Positions 20,908-37,190 of a stretch of DNA of 64,000 bases are shown here, one piece after another; position 1 is the first letter of the stretch, and each line of letters starts with the position of its first letter. The notes beneath the pieces are model-generated. The model saw only the letters and a program-made list of their open reading frames with translations. It did not search any database and had not been told where the DNA came from. A program made the translations under genes and the position numbers. This DNA is from an uncultured Candidatus Melainabacteria bacterium (GTDB lineage: Bacteria > Cyanobacteriota > Vampirovibrionia > Gastranaerophilales > Gastranaerophilaceae): contig CAKUUC010000010.1 in the NCBI GenBank assembly GCA_934692625.1, positions 5,337 to 69,336 of the forward strand. The letters run 5' to 3'.

Positions 20908-20982
20908 GCGGGCATAGTTCAGTGGTAGAATGTCTCCTTCCCAAGGAGAAGATCGCGAGTTCGAGTCTCGTTGCCCGCTCCA
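20908..20982 (+). tRNA. tRNA-Gly (anticodon CCC)
   Basis: Cloverleaf read by hand. Acceptor GCGGGCA/TGCCCGC, D arm GTTC-AGTGGTA-GAAT, anticodon stem TCTCC/GGAGA with loop TTCCCAA, T arm GCGAG-TTCGAGT-CTCGT, discriminator T, encoded CCA. Confidence 0.9.
20938..20979 (+). repeat. attL core (direct repeat of 37149-37190)
   Basis: 42/42 nt identity with 37149-37190. Extends to 47 nt with one mismatch from 20933/37144. Confidence 0.85.
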
Positions 20983-21013: not shown

Positions 21014-21101
21014 TGTATTGCGGGATATTGAGTATTTTTATAGTTCTTTGGTTATATCAGTAATTTTTCTAAATTGTGCCATTTTGTGCCATGAATTTTC
21101 A

Positions 21102-21914
21102 TCATAGTTGGTACAAATTATTGAGTACCTCTCCTACTTTTTTATACGAAGTTTGTAATGAATGTGTATAAACATCTAAAGTTATAACAGATGAAGAATG
21201 CCCCATAAGTTTTTGTACCGTTTTGGGGTCAACACCATTGGTGACAAGAGAAGTTGAAAAAGTATGTCTTAAATCTTTGAATGTAAAATGACCAATTCCA
21301 CATGCATTTCTAACAGGGAGAAATAAACGATTAAATACATTATCTCCTAAGTACATTTCACCTTTACTATTTGGAAATACATATTTGCAACTACCAGTTT
21401 TTATTCTCTGTTCATTCAAAATCTTTTTTAAACGAGATGGTATAATAAATTTTCTATTAGAAGATTTTGTTTTAGGTGAGCATAAATTTTCTTTATATGC
21501 ACTATATTTTACGTTTATACAATTATTATCAAAATCTACATTTTCCCACATAAGAGCAACTAATTCCCCTCTGCGCATTCCTGTATAAACCGCAGTTGCA
21601 AGCATTGGGTAAAAATTAGGTTTAACTCTTTTGCATGTTTCAAATAGTTTTACTACTTCTTGTGGTGTTAATGCTCTTGCTTCTCTTGATACTACACTTT
21701 CGCAATGAACCTGTTTTACAACATTTTTAAAAATAGCTTCATTTTCAACTTGACGTTCAATTATAGAACCTAGCAAAATTTTATATTTTACCACACTGGC
21801 AGAACTCAAAAGTCTATCATTTTTGAGGTATAAAATAAAATCTTCTACATCTTTTTTACTTATTAAGTATAATTTTGCATTACCAAAGAATGGTAGACCA
21901 CTTAGATTAAACAT
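21102..21914 (-). CDS. int: Tyrosine site-specific recombinase (short, 270 aa)
   Basis: Catalytic signature GMRRGEL (R), KDLRHT (H/K-x-x-R), GHSS and VYTH (Y). The ORF is closed by an in-frame TAG 11 codons upstream, so no N-terminal arm-binding domain is present. Confidence 0.85.
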   Translation of the reverse strand: MFNLSGLPFFGNAKLYLISKKDVEDFILYLKNDRLLSSASVVKYKILLGSIIERQVENEAIFKNVVKQVHCESVVSREARALTPQEVVKLFETCKRVKPNFYPMLATAVYTGMRRGELVALMWENVDFDNNCINVKYSAYKENLCSPKTKSSNRKFIIPSRLKKILNEQRIKTGSCKYVFPNSKGEMYLGDNVFNRLFLPVRNACGIGHFTFKDLRHTFSTSLVTNGVDPKTVQKLMGHSSSVITLDVYTHSLQTSYKKVGEVLNNLYQL

Positions 21915-22097
21915 TGTAAAATTCGGTTGTATCCCTTTTATAATCTATATTTCAAATATTATTACAAATTTGTAACATTATGTGTTGTGATAAGGAGACT
22001 TGACAAAAACATGCCTGTAAACCACCTTATTTAGTGAAATATTATAAAATAATTAAGATTGAACGTTGAGTTATACCACTAATAATATAATTAATAT

Positions 22098-23087
22098 ATG
22101 AATAATAATTTAAAACACCTAATTAAAACATTCAAAGACGAGTTTGGAATTAAACTTGAAGATACAAACATTGATAATATCTTGGGTTTGAAAGAATTAC
22201 ATTTACAACCTTATATCTGGCGACCTTATTTAGAAAAGGAAGAACAATTTTTACAAACTCAGTTAAAAGCCTACTTATACAATGAACAACGTGCTAAGTA
22301 TAACAACCCTATAACAGAATGTGTATTTCAGGAGTATAAGAATAGATATATCCTTGTTTCATATTTGAGTGATTTTAGCAAAGTGAATAAACTATCCGAT
22401 TATACTGATATTATTATAACATTTTATGATGCTTATGAACCAAAGTGTAAAACAATTAGACGTACACTTTCAAAATGTGGTAAAAAGCCTAAACGTTATA
22501 CACGGTTTAGATTAAAACCTGATTCTATACCTGAAATATTTAGCCAAAAGTTCAATGAAATTGGACTATACTTAAACAGAACGAATGATTCACAACAGAT
22601 TTATACCCAAAGATTTTTACCAATGGTATATCTTATAAATAATAACCCTAAATTAACACCTAATATACAAGGACATCATACAAATTATGATACAAGTGTA
22701 GAAATTGGGTCTAAAACCTCTATTTTACCAATTCGTGAAGATTTGCATACAAAAGAGTTCCTCCCATCTAATATAATTGGTAGTGCAGGGTCTAATTTCA
22801 ATATTGCGAAAGGTATAATGTATTCTGATATGTTACAACTGAAGTATTTCAAGGTTAAACCAAAGAAGTATGACCACAAGGTACACGAGAATATTTTTGA
22901 TATTTTAGACCTCTATTTTATACAAAAACTTAGTATATCTGAGATTAAACGATATTTAGAACAGCATAAATCTAATTCTAAACTTGTGTATAACACCATT
23001 AAAAACATTGTAGAACACTTTAAACAATATACACCAGTTTTGACCAAAGAGAATATACAAAAGATAAAAAATAAGCAATTATCTTGA
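22098..23087 (+). CDS. Hypothetical island protein with C-terminal helix-turn-helix-like segment
   Basis: 329 aa. The C-terminal FDILDLYFIQKLSISEIKRYLEQ looks like a sigma-region-4/LuxR-type HTH. The rest is unrecognised. Confidence 0.5.
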   Translation: MNNNLKHLIKTFKDEFGIKLEDTNIDNILGLKELHLQPYIWRPYLEKEEQFLQTQLKAYLYNEQRAKYNNPITECVFQEYKNRYILVSYLSDFSKVNKLSDYTDIIITFYDAYEPKCKTIRRTLSKCGKKPKRYTRFRLKPDSIPEIFSQKFNEIGLYLNRTNDSQQIYTQRFLPMVYLINNNPKLTPNIQGHHTNYDTSVEIGSKTSILPIREDLHTKEFLPSNIIGSAGSNFNIAKGIMYSDMLQLKYFKVKPKKYDHKVHENIFDILDLYFIQKLSISEIKRYLEQHKSNSKLVYNTIKNIVEHFKQYTPVLTKENIQKIKNKQLS

Positions 23088-23230
23088 AAAATGGGGGCAG
23101 AAAACTAAGTATAAATCAGAGTTTGAAATAAGCCTAAAACTCTTTCTACACTTGCAATATACAGGCATGATTTTGGTGCAAAATTTGGTAAACTCGGAGA
23201 GGTAAAATTGTGATATGTAGCAAGGGGTAA

Positions 23231-23551
23231 TTATAAGTTTTTACCAATCAAATATAATATTTTTAATTTATCTTCTGGAAGCCTTTCTACCAATGTAGCT
23301 ATTTCAGTTTTCAGATTTTCAACATTCTCAATCGGTTCAAAATCAAACAAATCTTTCATTGAACAGTTAAACACTTTTATCATATTTGTAAGAGTTTCTG
23401 GATTTGGGAAACTACTACCCAATTCAATGAGTGAAACTTGACGTTGCGTTCGCTCAATCTTTTCACCTAGCTCTTCTTGGGTTAAACCTATTTGATTTCT
23501 ATAATGCTTTATTTTCAACCCTAAAAGGGTTTTCAATTCTATATCGTTCAT
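23231..23551 (-). CDS. XRE-family HTH transcriptional regulator
   Basis: LKIKHYRNQIGLTQEELGEKIERTQRQVSLIELG. The start is moved to the ATG at 23551, preceded by GAGG. Divergent from the defence operon. Confidence 0.8.
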   Translation of the reverse strand: MNDIELKTLLGLKIKHYRNQIGLTQEELGEKIERTQRQVSLIELGSSFPNPETLTNMIKVFNCSMKDLFDFEPIENVENLKTEIATLVERLPEDKLKILYLIGKNL

Positions 23552-23630
23552 TAAAACCTCAATTAAATTATACGTGTTTGCACATCTTAATTGAACGTAA
23601 CTATATCTTGTAAAATTTAACGTTTTATTA

Positions 23631-23687
23631 TATAACATGTTGTAAAATATGATATTATACAGCTTATTTACAACATAAGATGTTATA
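23631..23687. promoter_or_regulatory. Inverted repeat in the divergent XRE/SNF2 control region (candidate operator)
   Basis: TATAACATGTTGTAAA (23631-23646) versus TTTACAACAT-AAGAT-GTTATA (23667-23687). Confidence 0.35.
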
Positions 23688-23706
23688 TTTAAGAGGTAAA
23701 TAATAA

Positions 23707-26700
23707 TTGGAAGTAATAGACAATATAAATAATATTTTAAAAGATGATTTGGCTACTACCATAAAGCCCAATAGTAAAGTGTCTATCGCTTCAGCATGTT
23801 TTTCAATCTATGCCTATAAAGAATTAAAAAAGCAACTTGAAAGCATTGATGAACTACGTTTTATCTTTACATCTCCAGCATTTGTAAAAGAACGAACCCC
23901 TAAAACACAAAGAGAGTTCTACATTCCTAGATTATCAAGAGAAAAAAGTTTATACGGTACAGAATATGAAATAAAACTCCGCAACGAATTAACTCAACGT
24001 TCTATCGCCAAAGAATGTGCAGAATGGATTAAAAGAAAAGTAAAATTCAAGTCTAATATAACAAATGAACAAATGTCTGGTTTTATAAATGTAGAAAGTG
24101 ATGATACTTATACATATTTGCCTGTTAATGGATTTACAACAACTGATATTGGTTGTGAAAAAGGAAACACTCTAACCAATATTGTTACAAGATTTGAAAC
24201 CCCACAAAGTCAAACTTTTTTAAAAACATTTGACACTATTTGGAATGACAAAACAAAACTACAAGATGTTACAGAACAAATCATTGAAAGTATTTCCACC
24301 GTCTATAAAGAAAATTCTGGAGAATTTATATATTTCATAACCTTATACAACATTTTTAATGAATTTTTGCAAGATATTTCAGAAGACAATTTGCCAAATG
24401 ATGCAACTGGATATAAAAACAGTGTAATTTGGAATAAGTTATTTGATTTTCAGAAAGATGCTTGCCTCGCAATTATCAATAAATTAGAAACATATAATGG
24501 TTGTATATTAGCTGATAGCGTGGGCTTAGGTAAAACTTTTACAGCACTATCTGTTATTAAATATTACGAAAACAGAAATAAATCAGTATTAGTTTTATGC
24601 CCTAAAAAGTTAAGCAATAACTGGGTTATGTATAAAAGCAATTACTTAAATAATCCCCTTGCAAATGACAGGCTTAGATACGATGTACTTTATCATACAG
24701 ATTTGTCAAGAGAAAAAGGATTTTCTAACGGTTTAGACTTGTCTTTAATCAACTGGGGAAATTATGACCTTATTGTAATTGATGAATCTCACAATTTCCG
24801 TAACGGCGGAGATATAAAAGATGACAAAGAAAACAGATACCTTCGTTTAATGAATAGAGTCATAAGAAGTGGAGTTCAAACAAAAGTTCTTATGCTTTCT
24901 GCAACCCCAGTAAACAACCGATTTAATGACTTGAAAAATCAACTACAACTTGCCTATGAAGGCGATACTAGAAAAATAGACTCTAAATTAAATACTAAAA
25001 AACCTATTAATGTAATTTTCAGACAAGCACAACAAGCATTTAATGAATGGTCAAAACTCCCAGCAGATGAAAGGACTACTGAATGTTTATTGAATATGCT
25101 TGATTTTGATTTCTTTGAATTGTTAGACAGTGTAACGATTGCTCGGTCAAGAAAACATATTGAAAAATATTATGATACATCAAGTATTGGTAAATTTCCA
25201 ACTCGTCTACCTGTAATTTCGTTAAGACCACCACTAACAGAAAATACCGAAAGGATAAACTACAACCAAATTTATGAACATATAAGTGCTTTAAATCTAA
25301 AAATTTATATGCCTTCATTATTTATATTTCCAAGTAAAGAAGCGAAATATTATGATGTAGAAGCTAAACAAGCAAATATCAAATCTTCTAAAACTGGTCA
25401 AATTGGTCGTGAAGAAGGTATTCGCCGTTTAATGAGTATAAATTTATTAAAAAGGCTTGAAAGCTCTGTCTACTCATTCAAATTAACTCTTACACGAGTA
25501 CAACAACTTATTACATCTACTCTTCAAAATATTGAAAATTTCAAGACAAATGGCACAAATTCTAATATTGAGGTCGATGATTACATTCACCCAGAAAATG
25601 ATTTTGATGATGACGATTTGAATACAAATTTATTTTCAATTGGTAATAAGCTAAAAATAGACTTTAACGATATGGATTATATATCTTGGGAAAGTCAATT
25701 ACAAGCAGACTTAGAGATTTTAAATGATTTGATATTTGAAATTGAAAAAATATCACCTGAAGAAGATGCCAAACTTCAAAAACTTTTAACGTTGATAATA
25801 AACAAAATAGAACACCCTATAAATCCTGATAATAAAAAAGTCATTGTATTTTCGGCCTTTGCCGATACCGCAGAGTATTTATACAAACATATTAGCAAGT
25901 ATGTAAAAGAAAATTTTGGTATAGAAAGTGCAATGGTTACAGGTTCAAAAGACGGTGTTACAACTTTATCAAAAATCAAAACAGATTTGAATACGGTTCT
26001 AACATATTTTTCACCACGCTCCAAAGATAAAGATTTAATCTATCCAAATGATAATAGACAAATTGATATTTTAATTGCTACGGATTGTATTTCAGAAGGT
26101 CAAAACTTGCAAGACTGTGACTATCTGATAAACTATGATATTCATTGGAATCCTGTAAGAATTATCCAACGTTTTGGGCGTATTGACAGAATTGGCAGTA
26201 AAAACGATGTAATACAACTGGTTAATTTTTGGCCAGATTTAACGCTTGATGAATATATCAACTTAAAAGCTCGTGTTGAAACAAGAATGAAAGTTACAGT
26301 TATGACTTCAACTGGAACAGGTGCAGACAATGTTCTTGATGAAAGCGAAAAAGAAGACTTGGAATACAGAAAAAGACAGCTCCAAAAACTACAATCAGAA
26401 GTTGTTGATATTGAAGATATGAACTCAGGCATTAATATTATGGACTTGGGACTAAACGAATTTAGGTTAGATTTGTTGTCTTATATGAAAGATAACCCTG
26501 ATGTTGAAAATTCTCCGTCTGGTTTACACGCAATAGTAAAAGGTGATAAAGAGTTAAAATCTGGTGTCATTTATATCCTTAAAAATGTATCAAACACCAT
26601 AAATATAGATAATCAAAACAGATTACACCCATTTTATATGGTTTATATCGCAGATGATGGAGAAGTTATTTGTAATTACTTACAACCTAAAAGCCTACTT

Positions 26701-26961
26701 GATTTGATGCGCAAACTTGGCAAACAAAATCCAGAGCCAAATAGTGAATTATGCAAAATATTTAATCAAGAAACACAAGATGGCAAAAATATGGGTAAAT
26801 ATTCAAAACTTTTGGAAGAAACAATTTGCTCAATTATTGACGTAAAAGATGAAAGTGATTTTGAAAGTTTGTTTTCTACTGGCGAAAGTTCTTATATGAA
26901 AAACACTATTTCTGGACTTGATGACTTTGAACTCATTTGTTTTTTGGTAGTAAAGGAGTAA
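23707..26961 (+). CDS. SNF2-family helicase with extra N-terminal (PLD-like/unknown) region
   Basis: 1084 aa, TTG start after AAGAGG. Motif I ADSVGLGKT, motif II VIDESHNFRN, SATPVNN, and helicase-C motifs DCISEGQNLQ and HWNPVRIIQRFGRIDRIGS. Confidence 0.9.
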   Translation: MEVIDNINNILKDDLATTIKPNSKVSIASACFSIYAYKELKKQLESIDELRFIFTSPAFVKERTPKTQREFYIPRLSREKSLYGTEYEIKLRNELTQRSIAKECAEWIKRKVKFKSNITNEQMSGFINVESDDTYTYLPVNGFTTTDIGCEKGNTLTNIVTRFETPQSQTFLKTFDTIWNDKTKLQDVTEQIIESISTVYKENSGEFIYFITLYNIFNEFLQDISEDNLPNDATGYKNSVIWNKLFDFQKDACLAIINKLETYNGCILADSVGLGKTFTALSVIKYYENRNKSVLVLCPKKLSNNWVMYKSNYLNNPLANDRLRYDVLYHTDLSREKGFSNGLDLSLINWGNYDLIVIDESHNFRNGGDIKDDKENRYLRLMNRVIRSGVQTKVLMLSATPVNNRFNDLKNQLQLAYEGDTRKIDSKLNTKKPINVIFRQAQQAFNEWSKLPADERTTECLLNMLDFDFFELLDSVTIARSRKHIEKYYDTSSIGKFPTRLPVISLRPPLTENTERINYNQIYEHISALNLKIYMPSLFIFPSKEAKYYDVEAKQANIKSSKTGQIGREEGIRRLMSINLLKRLESSVYSFKLTLTRVQQLITSTLQNIENFKTNGTNSNIEVDDYIHPENDFDDDDLNTNLFSIGNKLKIDFNDMDYISWESQLQADLEILNDLIFEIEKISPEEDAKLQKLLTLIINKIEHPINPDNKKVIVFSAFADTAEYLYKHISKYVKENFGIESAMVTGSKDGVTTLSKIKTDLNTVLTYFSPRSKDKDLIYPNDNRQIDILIATDCISEGQNLQDCDYLINYDIHWNPVRIIQRFGRIDRIGSKNDVIQLVNFWPDLTLDEYINLKARVETRMKVTVMTSTGTGADNVLDESEKEDLEYRKRQLQKLQSEVVDIEDMNSGINIMDLGLNEFRLDLLSYMKDNPDVENSPSGLHAIVKGDKELKSGVIYILKNVSNTINIDNQNRLHPFYMVYIADDGEVICNYLQPKSLLDLMRKLGKQNPEPNSELCKIFNQETQDGKNMGKYSKLLEETICSIIDVKDESDFESLFSTGESSYMKNTISGLDDFELICFLVVKE

Positions 26962-26964
26962 AAA

Positions 26965-27615
26965 TTGCTATTTAGTGAAAAGACACAATTAAATAGAATT
27001 ATGCCAAAGGCAAAGTTTATGAAACTTGCAGAACTATCAACACCTGTAAGAGCGGAATTTCAAAACAATGTTGAAAGACTGATTTTGGCAAATATTTTAC
27101 GACAAGAAACTACTAATATCTCAAAAGGTAAAAATGTTCAGGAGATAGATGTTTTTGAATTTTTGCTTAAAGAAAAACATGTGTCTAACAATTTGATAAA
27201 AGAAATTGATGTTGCAATACCTAAATATATTCTTTTCGTTTTCAAGTGTAATAATGCCATTCAACTTGCAATTTCTTATAAAGAGCCTTCTATAAATGAC
27301 AATAAATATAAGGTTATAAAGACCTATAAAACAGAATGGCAAAAACAAGAGGATATAAAGCTTGAAATTACAGGGCTTGACTTAGATGCAGTATATAACA
27401 GTTTTATAACCCAAATAGCAAATGGACAAGTAGAAACAGATGAAACAACAGATATAAAAAGTGCGGTCGAAAAATCTATCAATGTAGAAAAACTTCAAAA
27501 GAAAATTGAAACACTAAAATCCAAAATCCGCAAAGAACCACAATTCAATAAACAACTGATAATGAAAAAAGAATTGAAAGAACTTCAAAAAACATTGGAG
27601 GAAGTACATGGTTAA
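26965..27615 (+). CDS. DUF4391-like protein
   Basis: 216 aa, TTG start after AAGGAG. The pattern IMPKAKF...ILANILRQETTNI...VQEIDVFEFLLKEK...IPKYILFVF matches my memory of DUF4391, which typically follows SNF2 helicases. Confidence 0.65.
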   Translation: MLFSEKTQLNRIMPKAKFMKLAELSTPVRAEFQNNVERLILANILRQETTNISKGKNVQEIDVFEFLLKEKHVSNNLIKEIDVAIPKYILFVFKCNNAIQLAISYKEPSINDNKYKVIKTYKTEWQKQEDIKLEITGLDLDAVYNSFITQIANGQVETDETTDIKSAVEKSINVEKLQKKIETLKSKIRKEPQFNKQLIMKKELKELQKTLEEVHG

Positions 27616-29803
27616 AGATATAGAATTTAAACAAATTCAAAATAATAGAATTTTTGATAGTTCTTTTGAAAAATTTGAAAATAATAATATAATTTCATTT
27701 TCTCCAAAAGGAATTATAGTAATTTATGCCCCTAATGGAACAGGTAAAACGAGTTTTATTGAAGCTTTATCTGGCTTAAAAGATACTAAACTTAAGTTTA
27801 AATATAATAATAAAGAATATGACACAGGTGAAAACATTTTCTCTACTATTCAAGATCAGAATGATAGAAATATTATTCAAGGTAATACTAAAGATTTTTA
27901 TCTTGGTAAAAATGTTCGAAAAGAATTTGAATTGGAAGAAAGTTTGGAAAATATTAGAAAAAATGTTGTTGATAAAATTATAGAAATAGCTACAACTCAT
28001 AAAATGAAAAATTTATCTTCTTTGTTGTTAGATTGCTTTACTGAGAATGAAAAAGATTTCTTATCAAAGGCTATAAATAACAAAAACAAACTAAATAGTG
28101 CAACAAATAAAGATATTATTTCATTTGTTAATAAAATACCTGAAATAACCGAGTTAAAATATGATACTAATAAATTTAACTTTTTAGAAAATGATTTATC
28201 ACAAAAAACTTCCACAATTAAATTACTTGAAAATTTAAAAAATGAAGAACTTAAACAAAATAAAGATATTATAAAATTTGAAGAAAATAATGATGCAATA
28301 AAAATCCTAAACAAATATTCCAACCACAATTGTATAATATGTGATAGTGAAATTGATAGAGAATTATTGTTAAAAGCAAAACAAGATAAGCAAATATCTA
28401 TAAAAAAGACATTAGATGATAATACTAAAAAAATTTTAGAAGAAGTATTAAACATTGACTTACAAAAAGACCCTTTTAACATCAAATCAATTATTTTAAA
28501 AGCGATTGAAACTGGAGATAAGACGGTCTTAAATCCACTAATAGATGACATTGAAAAATATAAAAACTTTTTTAAAGAACAAATTTTATATGATATTAAA
28601 AATATTGAAGGGTTTAAAACATTTGAAAAAATAGAAACTAAATATAGTGATTTAATTGCAAAACAACCAGATATTGAAAATGAAGATATCGAATTTATCC
28701 AACAATATATTAAAGATTGTATGAATAAAGACTTTCAAATAAGCCGAGCTGAAGGGAAAAAATACTTACAAATACAACTTGATGAGCAAGATTTTTTAGG
28801 AAAAGATAGAAAAGATTTACCTTTAAGCACAGGTGAACAAAATTTTCTATCACTTTTTATGGAATTTCTAAGGGTCAAAAACTCTGAAAATCCAATAGTT
28901 GTAATTGATGACCCTATATCCAGTTTTGATTCTATTTATAAGAATAAAATTATATATTCAATTGTAAAAGTATTACAAAACAAACAAATTATCCTTTTAA
29001 CACATAATACTGATGTTATAAGATTATTAAAATCACAAGCTGGAAAAACTTTTAATTTGTATATATTAAACAATACTAAAGGTTCTGATAATAATGGATT
29101 TATTTCTATAAATAATAAAGAACTTAAACTATTAACTGATTTAGCAGAATTAACCAAATTTTTTAGAGAAGATGTTTTTGAACAAATAAAAGATGTTAAT
29201 CTATTTTTATATTCAATGATTCCTTTTCTAAGAGGATATGCACATATAACAGGAAATGAAGATGCGTATGAACAATTAACTAAATTAATGCATGGTTATA
29301 TGGCTGAAAATATCGATATTGCCGCTATTTATAAAAGTATATTTGGAAATAAGAACAACAAAATCCCAACGGTGTTTTCAAAAAATATTACTGATATTTT
29401 AAATCTAAAGGACTTTGGAGAAATTATCAATCAAGACAACTATCCTTTATTAAACAAAACATTAAGACATACCCTAACATATCTATATTTAAGATTACTC
29501 GTAGAAAAAACGTTAGTTGAAAAATTTCAAATAGATCCCAATAAACATAAGACGTTAGGAAGTATCATATCTGTTGCATTTCCAAATGATAAGAACACTA
29601 TAATATTGAAAAATCGTATTCGTTTGACATCTAAGAAAACATTAATCAATGAATTTAATCATTTTGAAGGGAATTTAAGTATTTTTCAGCCAGCAATAGA
29701 TATAACTGATGCAACTTTAGAAAAAGAAAAAAAAGATATTGAAGATTTTGTAAAAAAGTTAAAGAAAGAGGTAAGTGGTGGAAAAGATGAGATTGGAAAG
29801 TAA
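27608..29803 (+). CDS. ABC/AAA_13-type ATPase with coiled-coil zinc hook, RloC/PrrC-like (candidate anticodon nuclease)
   Basis: 731 aa. Walker A APNGTGKTS, a roughly 360-aa K/E-rich insert with CIIC (28331-28342), signature LSTGEQ, Walker B VVIDDP, LLTHN, then a roughly 250-aa C-terminal domain (LRHTLTYLYLRLLVEK, LINEFNHFEG). Confidence 0.7.
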   Translation: MVKDIEFKQIQNNRIFDSSFEKFENNNIISFSPKGIIVIYAPNGTGKTSFIEALSGLKDTKLKFKYNNKEYDTGENIFSTIQDQNDRNIIQGNTKDFYLGKNVRKEFELEESLENIRKNVVDKIIEIATTHKMKNLSSLLLDCFTENEKDFLSKAINNKNKLNSATNKDIISFVNKIPEITELKYDTNKFNFLENDLSQKTSTIKLLENLKNEELKQNKDIIKFEENNDAIKILNKYSNHNCIICDSEIDRELLLKAKQDKQISIKKTLDDNTKKILEEVLNIDLQKDPFNIKSIILKAIETGDKTVLNPLIDDIEKYKNFFKEQILYDIKNIEGFKTFEKIETKYSDLIAKQPDIENEDIEFIQQYIKDCMNKDFQISRAEGKKYLQIQLDEQDFLGKDRKDLPLSTGEQNFLSLFMEFLRVKNSENPIVVIDDPISSFDSIYKNKIIYSIVKVLQNKQIILLTHNTDVIRLLKSQAGKTFNLYILNNTKGSDNNGFISINNKELKLLTDLAELTKFFREDVFEQIKDVNLFLYSMIPFLRGYAHITGNEDAYEQLTKLMHGYMAENIDIAAIYKSIFGNKNNKIPTVFSKNITDILNLKDFGEIINQDNYPLLNKTLRHTLTYLYLRLLVEKTLVEKFQIDPNKHKTLGSIISVAFPNDKNTIILKNRIRLTSKKTLINEFNHFEGNLSIFQPAIDITDATLEKEKKDIEDFVKKLKKEVSGGKDEIGK

Positions 29804-31640
29804 GGATATTACTGACGAAAATATAAAAAAGATTTTGGAGTTGTTTCCGAATGTTGCAACTGAGGCGAAAGATGAAAATGGTGAATTAAGAACAGCGATT
29901 GATTTTGATAAACTAAAACAGGAATTGTCAAAAGATGTTGTTGAAGGTGAAGAATGCTATGCTTTTACTTGGGTTGGCAAAAAAGAAGCGATGGTTGAAG
30001 CAAATAGACCAATCAGAAAAACATTGAGACCTTGTAGAGATAAATCATTAAATTGGGAAGATACTGAAAACATCTACATAGAAGGTGATAACCTTGAAGC
30101 TTTAAAACTCTTGCAAGAAAGTTATTTAGGTAAAATCAAAATGATTTATATAGATCCACCTTATAATACAGGAAATGACTTTGTTTATAAAGATAATTTT
30201 ACGCAAGATAAAGATAGTTATAATGAAGAACTCGGCATAAAAGATGAAGATGAAAATAGATTGTTCCAAAATACAGAATCTAACGGAAGATTTCATAGTG
30301 ATTGGTGTTCAATGATATATTCAAGGTTAAAACTTGCAAGGAATTTATTATCAGATGACGGTGTAATTTTTATTTCGATTGATGATAATGAAGTTAGAAA
30401 TTTGAAAAATATATGTGATGAAGTCTTTGGATATGAAAATATAATCTCACAATTTGTGTGGGAAAAGAAAACTTCTGGTGGGCAACACGCACACAATGTT
30501 TTAGATTTCCACGAATATATATTAGCTTATGCAAAATCAATATCTCAAATAATTGAATTTGCTGTGCCTAGAACGAAAAAACAACTAGCATCATTCACTC
30601 AAGAAGATGAATTTGTTAAAGCTAGGGGAAGGTATTTATTAAGTCCATTAAAGTCTTGGTTGGATTATAGAAAAACATTAATTTATGATATAGAATGCCC
30701 AGATGGTTCAATACTTAATACTCAATGGGTTTGTGCGAAAGATACTTTTGAAAAATTAAAATATGAAAATCGAATTGTTTTTAAAAAAAATAATAAAGGT
30801 GAATGGTCTGTTTATAAAAAGCAATATTCAAACGAAGAGGGTGGCTTTGTAAAACCAGCATCGATAATCACTGAGTATGGTCAAACAATGCATGGCAAAA
30901 AAGAAATTAAAGAATTATTTGAAAATAAAGACATAATAAGTTTTCCAAAACCAACCAAATTGATAAAATACCTTTTACAAATGCAAAGCGAGTCAGATAT
31001 AATTCTAGACTTCTTCTCTGGTTCAGCAACTACTGCTCATGCCTGTATGCAACTTAATGCAGAAGATGGCGGAAATCGAAAATTTATTATGGTTCAACTT
31101 CCTGAAAAAACTGATGAAAAATCTGAGGCTTTTAAAGCTGGTTATAAAAACATTTGTGAAATTGGGGAAGAACGTATTAGACGTGCAGGGCAACAGATTC
31201 TGAATCAAGTTCAGAATGACGGTAAAAAGATTGATGTTGGGTTCAGAGTTTTCAAAGTTGATGATACTAACATGAAAGATATATATTATTCACCTAATGA
31301 AACAAACCAAAAACAATTAGGCTTATACGAAAGCAATATCAAAGATGACAGAACTGACGAAGATTTGTTATATGGTTGTTTGTTAGATTGGGGTGTAGAA
31401 TTATCGCTTCCACACAGAGTTGAAATTATTGATGACAAACGTGTTCATATAGTAGATGAAGATGCTCTTGTTGCGTGTTTTGAAGAAAATATTCCAGAAA
31501 GTGTTATTCGTAAAATTGCAGGCATGAAACCATTAAGAGTTGTATTCAGAGATAGTTCATTCAATAGTGACGACAACAAAATCAATGTTGAAGAAATATT
31601 CAAACTTATCACTCCTGATACAAGGGTTAAGGTTATTTAG
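29787..31640 (+). CDS. mod: Type III-like DNA methyltransferase (Mod; beta-class N6A/N4C)
   Basis: DPPYNTG (motif IV) precedes DFFSGSATTAHA (motif I). ATG at 29787 preferred over GTG at 29775. Overlaps the upstream gene. Confidence 0.9.
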   Translation: MRLESKDITDENIKKILELFPNVATEAKDENGELRTAIDFDKLKQELSKDVVEGEECYAFTWVGKKEAMVEANRPIRKTLRPCRDKSLNWEDTENIYIEGDNLEALKLLQESYLGKIKMIYIDPPYNTGNDFVYKDNFTQDKDSYNEELGIKDEDENRLFQNTESNGRFHSDWCSMIYSRLKLARNLLSDDGVIFISIDDNEVRNLKNICDEVFGYENIISQFVWEKKTSGGQHAHNVLDFHEYILAYAKSISQIIEFAVPRTKKQLASFTQEDEFVKARGRYLLSPLKSWLDYRKTLIYDIECPDGSILNTQWVCAKDTFEKLKYENRIVFKKNNKGEWSVYKKQYSNEEGGFVKPASIITEYGQTMHGKKEIKELFENKDIISFPKPTKLIKYLLQMQSESDIILDFFSGSATTAHACMQLNAEDGGNRKFIMVQLPEKTDEKSEAFKAGYKNICEIGEERIRRAGQQILNQVQNDGKKIDVGFRVFKVDDTNMKDIYYSPNETNQKQLGLYESNIKDDRTDEDLLYGCLLDWGVELSLPHRVEIIDDKRVHIVDEDALVACFEENIPESVIRKIAGMKPLRVVFRDSSFNSDDNKINVEEIFKLITPDTRVKVI

Positions 31641-31652
31641 GGAGGCGGAATA

Positions 31653-34600
31653 ATGAAACTTAAATTTAAACATCAAAAATTCCAATCAGACGCAGCCAAA
31701 GCGGTTGTTGATATATTCGCAGGTCAACCTTGTTTTTCTCCAACATCTTATATGATGGATATGGGATTTACCAAATCAGGAGATAACCAAATTAGTCAAA
31801 CATCGTTGCTTAATTATACTGGTTTTTGTAATCACGCAATAGTTCCAAACTTAAACAGAAATATAATCATTGACAACATGCAAAAAATCCAACGATTAAA
31901 CCAACTTGAACCATCAAAAGAAGTTATCAGCGGATTTAACCTAACTGTTGAAATGGAAACAGGTACTGGTAAAACTTATACTTACATAAAAACAATGTTT
32001 GAACTAAACAAACACTACGGTTGGAGTAAATTTATTATCGTAGTTCCTAGTATTGCGATTAGAGAAGGGGTTTACAAATCCTTTAATATTACGCAAGAAC
32101 ATTTTGCGGAAGAATACGGCAAGAAAATAAAATTCTTTATCTACAATTCTAAAAGATTAAACGAAATAGAACAATTCGCAAACGACGGCGGACTTAATGT
32201 AATGATTATCAACTCTCAAGCCTTTAATGCTCGTGGAAAAGATGCTCGTAGAATTTATATGAAGTTAGATAGTTTCCGCAGTAGAAGACCTATTGATGTA
32301 ATTGCAAAAACTAACCCAATCCTTATCATTGATGAACCGCAATCAGTTGAGGGTAAAATAACTAAGGAAAAACTAATTGAGTTTAACCCACTTATTACAC
32401 TTCGATATTCTGCGACTCCAAAAGAAAAATATAATTTGGTTTACAGACTAGATGCGGTAGAAGCTTATAACAAAAAACTTGTCAAAAAAATTGCAGTAAA
32501 AGGTGTTACTATTCAAGGCAGCGATGCAACAAACGGCTATTTATACCTACAAAATATAAATTTGTACAAAGACAAAGCACCAATGGCAAACATTGAATTT
32601 GACCAAAAAGGTACAAACAAAATTCGTAAAAATAGTAAACTTTTAAAAGAAGGTGACAATCTTTATCCTTTATCTGGTGAATTAGACGAGTACAAAAACA
32701 ATTATATTATTACCAAAATTGACGGCAGAGATAACTCCGTAACATTTTTAAACGGAACAAAGATTTTTGTCGGCAATGTCTTAGGCGAAGAAAACGAAGA
32801 CCAAATAAGACGTATTCAAATCCGAGAAACTATACTTGCACATATAGAAAAAGAACGTAAATTGTTTTTCAAAGGTATAAAAGTTTTATCATTATTCTTT
32901 ATTGATGAAGTAGCAAAATATAAGCAATATGATGAATCAAACAACGAACTAAACGGAATTTATGCGGATATGTTTGAAGAAGAATATGAAAATATTATGA
33001 ATGAACTTCAAATAAAATTCGGCGAAGATGATTATATCAGATACCTAAAAGGAATTTCCGCAAAAAGTACACATGCAGGTTATTTCTCAATCGATAAAAA
33101 AAGTAAAAAAATAATCAATTCAACCGAAGATAAAAAAGAAGGTGGTTCAAATGCTGTTGATGCTTTTGATTTAATCATGAGGAACAAAGAAAGATTACTT
33201 AGTTTTGACGAACCTGTTAGATTTATCTTTTCACATTCTGCACTTAGAGAAGGTTGGGATAATCCAAACGTATTCCAAATTTGTACACTTAGAAAAACAA
33301 ACAGCACAGATAAAAAACGTCAAGAAATTGGGCGAGGTTTAAGACTTTGCGTAAACCAAAACGGAGAAAGAATGGATTCTAGCAAACTAGGTGAAACCGT
33401 TCACGATATAAATATTTTAACCGTAATTGCTAATGAAAGTTATGCTAGCTTTACAGAAAAATTACAATCAGAAATTGCTGAAATCACAACCGATAGACCG
33501 CAAGAGGTTAATGAAAAACTATTTGAAGGTAAATTGATTACAAATGCGAATGGCGAAGAACAAACTATTGACATCAATTTAGCGAAAAGAATACACAATT
33601 TATTTATTCGAAACAATTATATTGATGACGATAATAAACTTACAGAAGTTTACTATGAAGCTCAAAAAACAGGAAATATTGCTCTCCCTGAAAACCTTGT
33701 AGGTTATGAAGATTCTATTATAAAAATTGTAGATATGATTTACAACCCAAATACAATGGCTCCTGAAAATTTGAACGAAAGCAAACCTAAACTTGAAATT
33801 GATAAAGAGAAATTAAACAAAAAAGAATTTCAAGAATTGTGGAAAAGAATTAACACAAAAACCGCTTATGTCGTGAATTTTGAAACAAATGAGTTGATAG
33901 AAAAATCAATAAAATCTATTGATAAAAACTTAGCCGTAACAAGGTTGTATTCAGTAATACAAACAGGTTCTATGGATAAAATCGATTCAAAAGAAGCTTT
34001 AGAAAAAGGAACAGCTTTTGATAACGGGAAAATTTACAAAGAAGATATAAAAACCTTACATTGTGGAATTAAATATGACTTAATTGGCAAAATCGTTGAA
34101 GAAACAAAACTTACTCGTAAATCCGTTGTAAAAATTTTACAAGGTATTCACTCAGAAACATTCAACCAATTTAAAATAAACCCAGAAGATTTTATCATTA
34201 AGGTTTCTAATTTGATAAATGAAGAAAAAGCAACTGTTATTATAGAACATATCACATATAACAAGCTGGAAGAAGCTTATCAGACGGATATATTTGCAGA
34301 ACCTGAGATGAAAACAATTACAAACAAAAATTCACTTCCTGTTGAAAAGAATTTGTACAATTATCTTGTATATGATTCTGAAGTTGAAAAAGAATTTGGT
34401 GAAGATTTGGATAAAAACACAGATGTTTCAGTCTATGTAAAACTTCCAAAAGGTTTTTATATTAACACTCCTGTTGGGCATTACAACCCAGATTGGGCAA
34501 TCGCATTTAATGAAGGCTCAGTAAAGCATGTTTATTTTGTTGCAGAAACAAAAGGCTCAATGAGTTCACTACAACTAAAACCTATTGAACAAGCCAAAAT

Positions 34601-34700
34601 AAATTGTGCAAGAGAGCATTTTAAAACGATTAGTTCAGATAGTGTTCAGTATGATGTTGTAGATAATTATCAGGCACTACTTGATAAGGTTATGAGGTAG
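31653..34700 (+). CDS. res: Type III-like restriction enzyme Res subunit (helicase + PD-(D/E)xK nuclease)
   Basis: 1015 aa. METGTGKTYT, IIDEPQ, YSATP, SHSALREGWDNPNVF and the C-terminal YNPDW...FVAETKG nuclease motif. GGGAGG RBS. Confidence 0.9.
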   Translation: MKLKFKHQKFQSDAAKAVVDIFAGQPCFSPTSYMMDMGFTKSGDNQISQTSLLNYTGFCNHAIVPNLNRNIIIDNMQKIQRLNQLEPSKEVISGFNLTVEMETGTGKTYTYIKTMFELNKHYGWSKFIIVVPSIAIREGVYKSFNITQEHFAEEYGKKIKFFIYNSKRLNEIEQFANDGGLNVMIINSQAFNARGKDARRIYMKLDSFRSRRPIDVIAKTNPILIIDEPQSVEGKITKEKLIEFNPLITLRYSATPKEKYNLVYRLDAVEAYNKKLVKKIAVKGVTIQGSDATNGYLYLQNINLYKDKAPMANIEFDQKGTNKIRKNSKLLKEGDNLYPLSGELDEYKNNYIITKIDGRDNSVTFLNGTKIFVGNVLGEENEDQIRRIQIRETILAHIEKERKLFFKGIKVLSLFFIDEVAKYKQYDESNNELNGIYADMFEEEYENIMNELQIKFGEDDYIRYLKGISAKSTHAGYFSIDKKSKKIINSTEDKKEGGSNAVDAFDLIMRNKERLLSFDEPVRFIFSHSALREGWDNPNVFQICTLRKTNSTDKKRQEIGRGLRLCVNQNGERMDSSKLGETVHDINILTVIANESYASFTEKLQSEIAEITTDRPQEVNEKLFEGKLITNANGEEQTIDINLAKRIHNLFIRNNYIDDDNKLTEVYYEAQKTGNIALPENLVGYEDSIIKIVDMIYNPNTMAPENLNESKPKLEIDKEKLNKKEFQELWKRINTKTAYVVNFETNELIEKSIKSIDKNLAVTRLYSVIQTGSMDKIDSKEALEKGTAFDNGKIYKEDIKTLHCGIKYDLIGKIVEETKLTRKSVVKILQGIHSETFNQFKINPEDFIIKVSNLINEEKATVIIEHITYNKLEEAYQTDIFAEPEMKTITNKNSLPVEKNLYNYLVYDSEVEKEFGEDLDKNTDVSVYVKLPKGFYINTPVGHYNPDWAIAFNEGSVKHVYFVAETKGSMSSLQLKPIEQAKINCAREHFKTISSDSVQYDVVDNYQALLDKVMR

Positions 34701-34802: not shown

Positions 34803-35216
34803 ATGAAAAAACTTTTTGCAATTATATTTGTATCTTTGTTATTAACTGGTAGTGCATTTGCTGGTAACACCTACAACCAATACGGTAGTAAAACAGGTTC
34901 GTACAGAACAAATGGCTCTACAACCACAACTTATGATAGATACGGTTCGCGCACAGGCTCTTACAAAACTAACGGCAACACAACCACAAAATACGACCAG
35001 TACGGTTCAAGACAAGGCACAATCAAAAAGACAACATCTGGTTACACCACATACGATAAATATGGGAGTCGAACAGGTAGTTATAAGACAAACTCTAACG
35101 GTACAACCACATCTTATGACAAATACGGTAGAAAAACAGGCTCGTTCAAAACAGATTCCACAGGTAGAACAACTCAATACGACCGCTACGGCAGAAAAGT
35201 TGGAAGTTTTAAGTAA
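34803..35216 (+). CDS. Secreted tandem-repeat protein (six roughly 20-aa YD-x-YG-x-x-TGSYKT repeats)
   Basis: Signal peptide MKKLFAIIFVSLLLTGSAFA, then YDRYGSRTGSYKTNGNTTTK-type units six times. AGGAG RBS. Confidence 0.7.
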   Translation: MKKLFAIIFVSLLLTGSAFAGNTYNQYGSKTGSYRTNGSTTTTYDRYGSRTGSYKTNGNTTTKYDQYGSRQGTIKKTTSGYTTYDKYGSRTGSYKTNSNGTTTSYDKYGRKTGSFKTDSTGRTTQYDRYGRKVGSFK

Positions 35217-35346
35217 TAATGCATATATTCACTTTTGCAAAAATTTTAAACAAATTTAATCTGTTTTTCACTGGCTCATTACTGGCTCATAAAATTTAAA
35301 CAAAATAGTAAAAAAAACAATATTTATAATACTTTTCGCACAATAT

Positions 35347-36687
35347 TTACTGGCTCATTACTGGCTCACTGATATTCAATTTGTAAATAATGTTTTTATT
35401 TTCTCCAGCCGAAACAAAAATATTTCTATCACATAAAGTCGTAATATCCCTTTTCGCTTGTGCTCGTGAAGCCTCTGTAATTTCTTGGTAGATTTTTGTT
35501 GTAATATACCCTTGTTCTACTACATATTTGATAGCCTTATTTTGTCTTTCATTTAAGCCATTGTATTGTTTGTACATCTGTAGAATAAAACCACCTTGAG
35601 ATGTTTCAAATATTGGAGCTGGAATCCCTTGTTTCAGGCATGCCGTAATCATACGTTTTATACCTGTGCCAAATTGTTCAACATAACCCGCCATATAGAT
35701 AATTTTCATAATCAATGGATTTCTTGACTTTGATGTATGAGATACGGTTAATTTATCAAGAGTTAAACCTCCAAATAAATCCCCAGAGTTATAAATCCAA
35801 ATACTATCTCCGAAAATTTTAATCTGTATTGCTGAACTAAAATCAAAGTAGTCTTTGTGAATAATAGCATTTAAAACAGCTTCTCTCAATGCTGGCAACG
35901 GATAATCCCAAATATCTTCTCTTTGAAATCCTTTAATTTCTGCTCTCATATTTATAAACAATTTCAAAACAGAGTCAACATCTTCAATTTGTTCAAATAA
36001 ATTACCTGTGATATTTTTGTCACTTATAATTACGGATTCATCATCACCCTTAAATAAACCAACCCTAATAGTTGCTGTCGATAGTAATTTTTGTGGATTC
36101 TTGCCAAATAATAAAATTGCTCCATTTGTAAGTTTATTATCAATAATAAGTTCTAATTGAGTCAAAAGGTCGGTTATACTTAACTCTTTTGCTTCTTCTG
36201 GCAATCTTCCCTTATTTGTCGCAAGTTTAACAAATTTTTGAACTGTTTTCTCATCTATATCATCAAGCGTAAAACTATTAGTTATAGAGTCCCAACTTAT
36301 ATCTTTTAATAATAATTTCTTTAGTTCTTCTTTATTTGCTTCTCTTGTCGTGTTTCCAACTCTTTTGTAATACTTATTTTTATAAGCAATAGGCACAGAT
36401 GATTTTTCAACCGTGATTTTTAGAATGTCTTTATCTTCAATATGTAAAAGTTCAACATTTGGTTGAATGCCTGTTAAATCAATAATTTTGTTAGTTAGTG
36501 CCTCTTGTTTTCCATTAGACAAATCAATACCTACAATATTTTTTGTTTCATCTTCAACACCAAGAATAATGCAACCCCCATCAGTATTTGAAAAGGCAGA
36601 AATAGACTTGAATAATCCTTCACTTACTTCTTGTTTATATTCAATAACATTGCATTCATCTAACAAATTTTCTAAATCTTTATTCAT
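35347..36687 (-). CDS. AlbA_2 (Schlafen-like) + HATPase_c_4 + C-terminal wHTH protein (often mis-annotated as RecG-like)
   Basis: VIEYKQEVSEGLFKSISAFSNTDGGCIILGVED is AlbA_2-like. REAVLNAIIHKDY is HATPase_c_4-like. The C-terminal NERQNKAIKYVVEQGYITTKIYQEI is a wHTH. Confidence 0.75.
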   Translation of the reverse strand: MNKDLENLLDECNVIEYKQEVSEGLFKSISAFSNTDGGCIILGVEDETKNIVGIDLSNGKQEALTNKIIDLTGIQPNVELLHIEDKDILKITVEKSSVPIAYKNKYYKRVGNTTREANKEELKKLLLKDISWDSITNSFTLDDIDEKTVQKFVKLATNKGRLPEEAKELSITDLLTQLELIIDNKLTNGAILLFGKNPQKLLSTATIRVGLFKGDDESVIISDKNITGNLFEQIEDVDSVLKLFINMRAEIKGFQREDIWDYPLPALREAVLNAIIHKDYFDFSSAIQIKIFGDSIWIYNSGDLFGGLTLDKLTVSHTSKSRNPLIMKIIYMAGYVEQFGTGIKRMITACLKQGIPAPIFETSQGGFILQMYKQYNGLNERQNKAIKYVVEQGYITTKIYQEITEASRAQAKRDITTLCDRNIFVSAGENKNIIYKLNISEPVMSQ

Positions 36688-36722: not shown

Positions 36723-37148
36723 TTTTTAACTATAGAATATAAAGCATGGGTCATACCTTATGATATAGTTTTTCTCGTGTCACTAATATCAAGAGTATAA
36801 AAGCCTTTGCGGATTTGTCTAACTTAAAAATGGTGGGGCATGCATGGGGCATTCATAGACTACACACAACTAGCATATACAAAATATTGGAACTAGGTAT
36901 TTAATAAAAGTAGGGAGGGTATAGCTAAAAAAAATACTAATCTAAGTATAACAGTTTGGTTGAAATGCGCATCATAGTACAAACATAGTTCTATAATTTT
37001 TGTGCCATTTTGTGACATAAATGTATAATAATGGGTATAAATCTATCTAAATTTAAAAACTTAAAACTTGTCTGAAATGCTTTATCCATCTAACTTTATA
37101 CCAGATTGTATCAAAATAGTAAAATATATCAAAATTGGCTTTATCTCT

Positions 37149-37190
37149 TTCCCAAGGAGAAGATCGCGAGTTCGAGTCTCGTTGCCCGCT
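37149..37190 (+). repeat. attR core (displaced native 3' part of tRNA-Gly, no CCA)
   Basis: Identical to 20938-20979 but followed by AAT instead of CCA. Confidence 0.85.

Follow-up and report, generated by a model that had tools for sequence, protein, structure and literature searches.

We analysed a 64,000-nucleotide (nt) stretch of DNA from an uncultured Candidatus Melainabacteria bacterium (contig CAKUUC010000010.1, positions 5,337 to 69,336; hereafter the window), in which five co-directional genes encode an SNF2 helicase, a DUF4391 protein, an ABC-type ATPase, and the Mod and Res proteins of a Type III-like restriction-modification (R-M) system. SNF2, DUF4391, Mod and Res were found to be a tightly co-inherited four-gene core across many phyla, and the ATPase is swappable cargo outside the core, an independently mobile single-gene cassette. 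We rated the core as an uncharacterised, widespread Type III R-M variant with slots for embedded defence genes, and the five-gene composite as this core plus cargo. The genes are arranged as follows.

23707-26961, + strand: SNF2 gene (core gene 1), 1084 amino acids (aa), TTG start behind an AAGAGG ribosome-binding site
26965-27615, + strand: DUF4391 gene (core gene 2), 216 aa
27608-29803, + strand: ABC/AAA_13 ATPase gene (embedded cargo), 731 aa
29787-31640, + strand: Mod gene (core gene 3), open reading frame (ORF) opening at 29775
31653-34700, + strand: Res gene (core gene 4), 1015 aa

The ORF calls bore out an earlier reading of the bare sequence (the original prediction), which had placed five co-directional genes at these coordinates, joined by overlaps or by gaps of at most 12 nt. 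SNF2 and DUF4391 are 3 nt apart, DUF4391 overlaps the ATPase gene by 8 nt, the ATPase gene overlaps Mod by 17 nt, and Mod and Res are 12 nt apart. A terminator scan of the five-gene block gave no credible hit on the + strand, and a sigma-70 promoter scan was uninformative (74 sites vs. 78 expected). Profile searches confirmed the domain identities and the motifs that had been quoted, which were DPPY and FxGxG in Mod, ETGTGKT, DEPQ and PD..ExK in Res, and CxxC in the ATPase.

A scan with a DUF4391 alignment, taking one genome per species, yielded 77 loci from more than 10 phyla, of which 71 hold a DUF4391 gene. An SNF2 gene (product of ~1080 aa) was located directly upstream of DUF4391 in 68 of the 71 loci and was absent, with room for it, in 2. 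Mod was found downstream of DUF4391 in 63/71 loci and Res in 50/71, and these genes were absent with room in 0 and 1 loci, respectively. The junction between SNF2 and DUF4391 was unbroken in 63 of the 68 loci. The original prediction had noted that SNF2 and DUF4391 pairs recur beside methyltransferases; they do so specifically, and nearly without exception, beside a Type III-like Mod-Res pair, with Mod present in 63/63 loci where the sequence allows. The co-conservation test proposed beforehand and run on the 71 loci gave a divided answer: the four genes travel together, and the ATPase does not travel with them. Among 35 complete loci, the median pairwise identity was 62% for SNF2, 53% for Res, 48% for Mod and 32% for DUF4391. 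Two metagenome contigs (L102 and L113) carry an additional Mod-like gene upstream of SNF2 besides the usual Mod, and another locus (L047) has two Mod genes in tandem.

The four-gene core was also annotated on plasmids of Escherichia coli, Acinetobacter, Listeria, Enterococcus, Lactococcus, Vibrio and Desulforapulum; for Desulforapulum, no Res is listed in the gene table of PLSDB, a table with known gaps. E. coli plasmids of ~70-180 kb carry the core by repA, and 14 E. coli plasmid records matched. The IncFIB plasmid pJH51-3 (L163, CP095457.1 3193-12220) has the core without cargo, adjoining repA. The GenBank annotation of the E. coli plasmid core gives no hint of an R-M system. Since an E. coli plasmid version exists, the system is directly testable and genetically tractable. 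Extrapolation from evenly spaced rows of PLSDB gave ~110 records with an SNF2 of this family vs. ~135 with a Res of this clade. The identity of plasmid SNF2 and Res to the window proteins fell into two matching tiers, 54%/49% and 43%/35%. Classical EcoP1-type plasmid Res was 28-29% identical to the window Res, and no SNF2 neighbour of a classical EcoP1/EcoP15-type plasmid Res gene was found among the matches listed. On the Bacillus cereus plasmid pJ75_1 (L169, NZ_AP022971.1 50789-64531), which also carries a large AAA ATPase, the core directly follows DrmA and DUF1998 (DrmB-like) genes in the same orientation; 15 Bacillus plasmid records match the SNF2 protein. This locus may be a DISARM/Type III hybrid, and the arrangement hints at kinship of the core with class 1 DISARM.

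The original prediction had described one composite five-gene system. The co-inheritance of SNF2 and DUF4391 with Mod-Res stood, and the membership of the ATPase did not, as this gene is present in few loci and is an indel in a sister island. A window-like ATPase fills the slot between DUF4391 and Mod in 4 of 63 species-level loci. The DNA of the related island L006 is colinear with the window (~90% identity) in two segments, 22010-27617 and from 29757 onward, and the ATPase body in between (27618-29756, an indel of ~2.1 kb) is replaced by 75 nt in L006. In two further islands, L007 and L008 (92-94% identity), the ATPase position is taken by different genes that span 1.5 kb and 0.6 kb, respectively; the slot of the sister islands is occupied by a trypsin-like/PDC-S45 gene or a 188-aa gene. 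The guanine-cytosine (GC) content of the ATPase gene is 23.5% vs. 29-31% for its neighbours.

A metagenome scan recovered 80 loci with ATPase homologues that were 37-50% identical. Of these homologues, 23 directly follow an AlwI-type restriction endonuclease accompanied by a D12 or C5 methyltransferase, and ~19 occupy the slot between DUF4391 and Mod; two lay behind BrxL of BREX, two behind a Type III Res, and several behind C5-methyltransferase systems with unidentified endonucleases. No homologue was seen in a Type I locus in these 80 loci, and the family is nearly absent from PLSDB plasmids. Because the family is tied to at least four kinds of R-M/BREX systems, it is a candidate general sensor of restriction failure.

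The ATPase position is one of two cargo slots. The interval between DUF4391 and Mod contained one to three extra genes in 36/63 loci, and that between Mod and Res contained one to three in 26/50. The 84 genes in the two slots form 61 sequence clusters and are typical cargo of defence or abortive infection, including RhuM, AAA_13, AAA_21, YhcG/DUF1016 nucleases, TIR, Fic, Abi_2, Shedu SduA_C, PIN, KAP NTPase, a trypsin-like protease, and the PADLOC candidates PDC-S05, S23 and S45. Embedded defence genes, or "guilt by embedding," have been reported for Hma, BREX, DISARM and Type I R-M in the accessible part of an earlier study (bioRxiv 10.1101/2024.01.29.577857). Diverse co-directional cargo nested between system genes is common to those systems and the present core, and several cargo families are shared, namely ABC ATPases, PDC-S05, S23, S45, TIR, PIN and Abi_2. 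Unlike those hosts, a Type III-like four-gene host is not among the systems named in that part of the study. The two slots offer a new guilt-by-embedding handle for the discovery of defence genes.

Mod was matched by Pfam N6_N4_Mtase (E 2e-32), by the PADLOC MTase_III model over its full length (E 1e-227), and by EcoP15I Mod (E 4e-62). It is a beta-class N6-adenine methyltransferase, with DPPY N-terminal to FxGxG, and its motifs IYIDPPYNTG and DFF.GS.TTAHA are conserved in 35 loci. The central target-recognition block (~30431-30998) was non-homologous in every close relative (L006-L011 and L083), and the rest of the island was 75-97% identical among them despite the divergent block. Such blocks in islands that are ~90-96% identical elsewhere point to frequent swapping of the target-recognition domain, hence of specificity.

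Res was matched by Pfam ResIII and RE_endonuc, by PADLOC REase_III (E 9e-296), and by EcoP15I Res (E 4e-66). It comprises a superfamily 2 (SF2) ATPase and a C-terminal PD-(D/E)xK endonuclease, with ETGTGKT, DEPQ and PD..ExK present. The motifs ETG.GKT, IIDEPQ, KRQE.GRG.R and YNPDW...ETKG are conserved across the loci (n = 35), and the catalytic motifs of Mod and Res together in at least 90% of the 35 loci. Both proteins align over their full length with the subunits of EcoP15I, which have been crystallised. The Res score of 357.3 bits is below the cut-off of 564 for the NCBIfam Type III equivalog PRK15483, which places it in a distinct clade and not as an EcoP1/StyLTI equivalog; members of this clade are named "DEAD/DEAH box helicase family protein," not Type III, by the PGAP annotation. 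No simple-sequence repeats were found in mod or res.

The SNF2 protein (Pfam SNF2-rel_dom, Helicase_C and ResIII) consists of an N-terminal domain (aa 1-240), a motor (aa ~240-880) and a conserved C-terminal domain (aa ~880-1084). The motor motifs DSVGLGKT, DESH and QRFGRIDRIGS are intact and conserved, and the N-terminal 240 aa and C-terminal 200 aa are conserved equally. Its best relatives in the PDB are SNF2 ATPases of the ISWI/SMARCA5 type and RapA. The PADLOC model PDLC01075 "HKD+Snf2" matches the protein over its full length (E 7e-125); the origin of the model name, "C3a139 HKD+Snf2," could not be traced in the literature. The C-terminal lobe matches DrmD models (NCBIfam, 153.7 bits vs. 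a cut-off of 610; PADLOC DrmD, E 4e-36), and relatives of the protein occur in many unrelated defence systems, as DrmD, ZorD, DpdE, BrxH and HmaA (PADLOC).

From profile comparison, we read the N-terminus of roughly 230 aa, which the original prediction had called non-helicase, as a putative phospholipase D (PLD) fold that has lost the catalytic HxK. A distant SNF2 homologue on a Brasilonema plasmid has a genuine PLDc_2 domain (FLHAKAYIFD...GSSN). When the N-terminal profile of the SNF2 family was aligned with this PLDc_2-SNF2 helicase by hhalign, a probability of 79% was obtained (E 1.6e-5, 205 columns). At the aligned catalytic sites, the window family has F-K-S-N and N-G-F-T-T vs. F-L-H-A-K and G-S-S-N-F-T in the Brasilonema homologue. 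No conserved His was found within aa 1-240 in 56 homologues, and the catalytic HxK(x)4D...GSxN motif of HKD-SNF2 nucleases is not present in the window SNF2 family. The N-terminal domain family comprises 3,152 clusters at 90% identity (E below 1e-5). Searches with the N- and C-terminal profiles against PDB sequences, relaxed Pfam and relaxed NCBIfam gave nothing meaningful.

The Brasilonema homologue itself (L168, plasmid pBOCT2, CP030123.1) lies between a 2289-aa protein with a sigma-70 domain and AAA and a relaxase. No DUF4391, Mod or Res was present in the annotated stretch examined, and this looks like the same helicase lineage put to a different use.

The second protein, called DUF4391-like in the original prediction, is a true member of PF14335 (E 1e-37; 130.6 bits vs. 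a gathering threshold of 29.9; aa 5-211 of 216). An AlphaFold2 (AF2) model had a predicted local distance difference test score (pLDDT) of 89.6; in it, aa 1-155 form an alpha/beta domain and aa 164-215 a long helical hairpin. The sole invariant residues across 61 diverse members are at the hairpin tip, E191, Q193, F194, N195 and Q197, and form the motif E191-x-Q-F-N-x-Q197. Foldseek found no neighbour of the model in the PDB or BFVD (best E 0.1, TM 0.2-0.26), and profile searches against PDB sequences, relaxed Pfam and relaxed NCBIfam gave nothing meaningful. Clustered at 50% identity, the family numbers 3,181 clusters for an E-value limit of 1e-3 and 1,839 for a limit of 1e-10, and nearly all of the best 150 representatives listed are stand-alone proteins of ~200-225 aa. 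A degenerate PD-(D/E)xK site (E60, D82, K106) was considered and dropped, as conservation of D82 does not extend to the wider family.

The ATPase was matched by Pfam AAA_13 (45.7 bits vs. a gathering threshold of 36). Its ABC head contains a Walker A motif, PNGTGKTS (aa 42-49), and the signature LSTGEQ with Walker B VVIDDP (aa 406-436). At least 90% of 64 homologues keep the CxxC cysteines C242/C245 of the ~350-aa insert. The C-terminal domain (aa ~500-731) is highly conserved; RIRLTSKKTLINEFNHFEGNLSIFQPAIDIT is invariant in 41 sequences, and these 230 aa include invariant R, E, H, N and K residues. Two homologues weakly match the PADLOC candidate PDC-S46. The PADLOC matches of the ATPase to PDC-S06 and LmuB were rejected as family assignments, as they covered only the ABC signature or P-loop. 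The ATPase resembles the anticodon nucleases PrrC and RloC in its ABC-type head, in a long insert with CxxC at the position of the RloC-like putative zinc hook, in a distinct C-terminal domain, and in the location of its gene inside or at the 3' end of several kinds of R-M operon. PrrC/RloC accompany Type I R-M, whereas the present family accompanies Type III-like, AlwI-type Type II, C5-methyltransferase and BREX systems.

The core shares with classical Type III systems (EcoP15I, EcoP1I and StyLTI) the order mod then res, a beta-class Mod with a variable target-recognition region, and a Res with SF2 and PD-(D/E)xK domains. It differs in being a separate clade, at the Res identity given above, in which SNF2 and DUF4391 genes, lacking in the classical systems, nearly always stand ahead of Mod-Res, and in having two intergenic slots that gather unrelated defence genes. 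Type III enzymes are textbook two-subunit machines, and here a large clade of them is nearly always joined to an SNF2 motor and DUF4391. The original prediction knew of no characterised system with the same five-gene order, and none was found in the literature; a literature search likewise gave no description or name for the SNF2-DUF4391-Mod-Res set. In full-text literature, "DUF4391" occurred only in a gene-enrichment table and as a typing slip for DUF7941, and "PF14335" occurred nowhere. The core is not described in the accessible parts of the BREX-related, MANTIS, Hma, embedded-gene, lactococcal R-M and R-M review literature. PADLOC has subfamily hidden Markov models (HMMs) for the helicase, Mod and Res, and an automated PADLOC run would probably call the locus a Type III R-M system, perhaps adding a mixed "DNA-modification" label.

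Taken as a whole, the locus is likely to be a tRNA-Gly island with two layers of defence, a four-gene R-M system plus an embedded ATPase cassette. By Type III biology, a Mod dimer would read a short asymmetric site and methylate one strand, and Res would use ATP to enter a sliding state and would cut unmodified DNA with its PD-(D/E)xK domain. The intact SNF2 motor and the putative PLD domain without HxK make ATP-powered translocation or remodelling of DNA, and not cleavage, the most plausible activity that the SNF2 protein would supply to Mod-Res. DUF4391 would most likely be an adaptor that couples the motor to Mod-Res through its hairpin tip. We tentatively propose, as a reading that falls somewhat short of probable, that the SNF2-DUF4391 pair acts as a dependent accessory motor. 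Such a motor would either extend the reach of restriction, through directed long-range communication or roadblock clearing, or it would gate both methylation and restriction while the system becomes established in a new host, a role with a parallel in the second ATPase and small co-factor of MANTIS.

By analogy with PrrC and RloC, the ATPase may serve as a back-up effector linked to R-M, its C-terminal domain acting as effector or sensor; we consider the chances evenly balanced. A bolder version, possible though somewhat less probable still than the accessory motor, would make the core a distinct and very widespread four-component, ATP-dependent class of restriction in which the dead-PLD SNF2 and DUF4391 alter the self/non-self rules of Type III, and in which the slots dock back-up defence. 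The rules might change if the pair used ATP to load or gate the methyltransferase, as in MANTIS, or if directed translocation replaced passive sliding, and the ATPase would belong to a new family of ABC ATPases that guard R-M systems.

Several points weigh against these proposals. A Staphylococcus epidermidis plasmid has Mod-Res of this clade (Res 50% identical) without SNF2 and DUF4391, and on a Lactococcus plasmid SNF2 is split by the insertion sequence IS712 with Mod and Res intact. Mod-Res can therefore persist alone and probably work alone, which argues against SNF2-DUF4391 as an obligatory loader of the methyltransferase. The AF2 model of the SNF2 N-terminal domain failed (pLDDT 37; alignment A7, 45 sequences, ~60-67% identical), so the PLD assignment rests on the profile alignment of 79% probability. 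The SNF2 C-terminal domain has no relatives detectable by profile searches, and any role given to it is a guess. The same applies to the C-terminal domain of the ATPase, which had no Pfam, NCBIfam or PDB relative in relaxed searches. The ATPase showed no similarity to a curated anticodon-nuclease model; of the "RloC-like" label in the original prediction, the ABC head, the CxxC insert and the position in an R-M operon held, and anticodon-nuclease homology at the C-terminus was not found in the Pfam, NCBIfam and PDB searches. The neighbourhood counts come from a simple ORF caller and HMMs seeded by the window proteins, and the locus sample is anchored on DUF4391, from which the frequency of solitary Mod-Res in this clade is not measurable. 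Within that sample and the plasmids, the dependence observed runs one way: SNF2-DUF4391 was not seen without Mod where the sequence allows, while Mod-Res occurs alone.

A first alternative is that the core is a methylation-based system of the DISARM/BREX/MANTIS type, in which SNF2-DUF4391 loads or activates the methyltransferase with ATP and restriction follows rules other than the classical collision between two inverted sites. MANTIS (also Gao_RL) is a DUF499-centred, BREX-related type 2 system (bioRxiv 10.64898/2026.09.23.753747; Rakesh & Krishnan, PMC12839542). It has two ATPases, a small co-factor, a methyltransferase and a PLD-SF2 protein, and its second ATPase and small co-factor control the methyltransferase and the PLD-SF2 effector (bioRxiv 10.64898/2026.09.23.753747). 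The composition of the core runs parallel, with four genes, two ATPases, a small protein of unclear role, an N6-adenine methyltransferase, and a putative PLD fold joined to an SF2/SNF2 motor. MANTIS hemimethylates asymmetric sites, a trait that the core would share, judging by Type III biology. The SNF2 protein is also homologous to HKD-SNF2 effectors, the core follows DrmA and DUF1998 on B. cereus plasmids, and Res scores below the NCBIfam cut-off (357 vs. 564 bits) and is not named Type III by PGAP.

However, no DUF499, DrmA, DrmB, DrmC, PglZ or BrxC was found in the window or in most loci. The DUF499 AAA+ ATPase of MANTIS (MtsA) thus has no counterpart in the window, and the putative PLD domain lacks HxK, in contrast to the active HKD on MtsD. 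The methyltransferase here is a Type III Mod, the cutter is presumably a Type III Res, and DUF4391 is, as far as the tools show, unrelated to DUF3780/DUF3870. With class 1 DISARM the core has in common an SNF2 helicase gene beside an adenine methyltransferase and the DrmD-like C-terminal lobe of SNF2, but DrmA, DrmB and DrmC are missing from the window island and neither Res nor DUF4391 is a DISARM component. The full-length EcoP15I alignments of Mod and Res, with intact motifs, and the Mod-Res-only plasmids, which suggest methylation independent of the pair, also speak against this alternative. We consider it rather unlikely. Defining the role of the pair would test how far the dual-ATPase logic of MANTIS reaches into classical R-M and would give DUF4391 a function.

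Less likely again is that SNF2-DUF4391 is a separate two-gene defence system, uncoupled from Mod-Res, that merely favours Type III surroundings because of shared regulation or a common defence-island neighbourhood. The Mod-Res of S. epidermidis without the pair would fit, as would the survival of the Lactococcus Mod-Res after disruption of SNF2 and the spread of SNF2 relatives over DrmD, ZorD, DpdE, BrxH and HmaA. Against it, Mod was missing in 0 of 63 loci with enough sequence in the DUF4391-anchored sample, the genes abut in a fixed order and orientation, the divergence tiers of SNF2 and Res match, and the classical plasmid Res genes (28-29%) have no SNF2 neighbours among the matches listed. 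In addition, an SNF2 protein without an active nuclease or other recognisable effector has no obvious way to act alone.

That the five genes form one obligate five-component system, with the ATPase as a structural or regulatory subunit, is very improbable. The genes are tightly packed in one direction, with stop/start overlaps on both sides of the ATPase, and the same arrangement is present in Melainabacteria (L009, L011, L083), Syntrophomonadaceae (L032) and Synergistaceae (L055), as well as in ~19 of the 80 metagenomic loci with an ATPase homologue. However, the ATPase is missing from 59 of 63 core loci, the 2.1-kb indel against the ~90%-identical island is clean and sister islands hold other genes in the slot, its GC content is 6-7 points under that of its neighbours, and most homologues reside at AlwI-type, C5-methyltransferase or BREX loci without SNF2 and DUF4391. 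The comparative data largely refute this reading.

In some pathogens, phase-variable mod genes of Type III systems serve as regulators. That the locus is mainly such a phasevarion-like epigenetic regulator, or a decaying remnant, is scarcely credible: the target-recognition region does vary between islands, but none of the five ORFs is disrupted, the catalytic motifs are conserved, and carriage is on an integrative island and on plasmids with other defence-type genes. Phase variation itself was rejected because mod and res have no simple-sequence repeats.

The four-gene core and its ATPase cargo reside in a 16.2-kb island delimited by a direct repeat of the 3' end of tRNA-Gly. The other features of the island are listed below.

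20908-20982, + strand: tRNA-Gly(ccc), the integration target (ARAGORN; Rfam tRNA, 69.5 bits)
20933-20979, + strand: attL, the 3' part of tRNA-Gly and left copy of a 47-nt direct repeat
21102-21914, - strand: tyrosine recombinase/integrase (Pfam Phage_integrase, E 1e-27; PHROG integrase, E 9e-52)
22098-23087, + strand: 329-aa protein without a Pfam, PADLOC or PHROG match
23231-23551, - strand: XRE-type helix-turn-helix (HTH) regulator, divergent from the operon (Pfam HTH_3, E 3e-9)
34803-35216, + strand: small secreted repeat protein, whose translation shows a signal peptide and YDxYGSxTGSYKTNG repeated ~7 times in tandem
35347-36687, - strand: Schlafen AlbA_2/HATPase_c_4 protein (Pfam; weak PADLOC pAgo-associated matches; PHROG 12156)
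37144-37190, + strand: attR, the right copy of the 47-nt repeat, 98% identical to the 3' part of the tRNA

The context given in the original prediction, a tRNA-integrated island under a divergent XRE regulator, was thus recovered as tRNA-Gly, the 47-nt repeat, the integrase and the HTH_3 gene. Two matches to the 47-nt repeat occurred in 0 of 100 shuffles. The HTH ORF extends to 23638; an internal Met is the likely start, giving 106 aa, as called in an identical Logan contig. HTH genes also precede the core in several other lineages. The genes that flank the island are housekeeping genes (GH57, alanine symporter, iPGM). The nearest relatives are metagenome-assembled genomes (MAGs) of gut Melainabacteria/Gastranaerophilales; an identical copy of the island is present in a Logan assembly, and a 96-97% identical one in metagenome contig L083. 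The 329-aa protein accompanies the island in related Melainabacteria loci (L006, L007, L008 and L083).

The repeat-protein gene has a GC content of 38.6% vs. 29% for the island, and homologues are located just 3' of Res in the Melainabacteria islands L006-L011, L013 and L083. The protein had no database match and has no obvious tie to restriction. The Schlafen-like gene is probably a second, separate defence-type gene within the island. Schlafen-like genes were also observed beside or inside the core in L019, L029, L049 and L051.

The island of contig CAVAPR010000005.1 (L007), which is assigned to a "Candidatus Methanomethylophilaceae archaeon" MAG, has 92-94% DNA identity including the tRNA end. 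A mis-binned Melainabacteria contig seems more likely here than a recent inter-domain transfer. A second direct repeat, TTGTGCCATTTTGTGCCATGAAT, is present at 21074-21096 and 37000-37022 (91% identity), one copy lying immediately within the island's left end and the other ~120-190 bp inward from attR. The repeat may be an arm-type site of the recombinase or a trace of tandem integration. Another SNF2 helicase, unrelated to that of the core (37400-40393, - strand, 997 aa, SNF2-rel_dom and DUF3670), is encoded just beyond the island's right end and looks chromosomal rather than a member of the island. Three copies of an 11-nt unit, TTACTGGCTCA, occur in doublets at 35267-35368, flanking the intergenic region between the repeat-protein and Schlafen-like genes.

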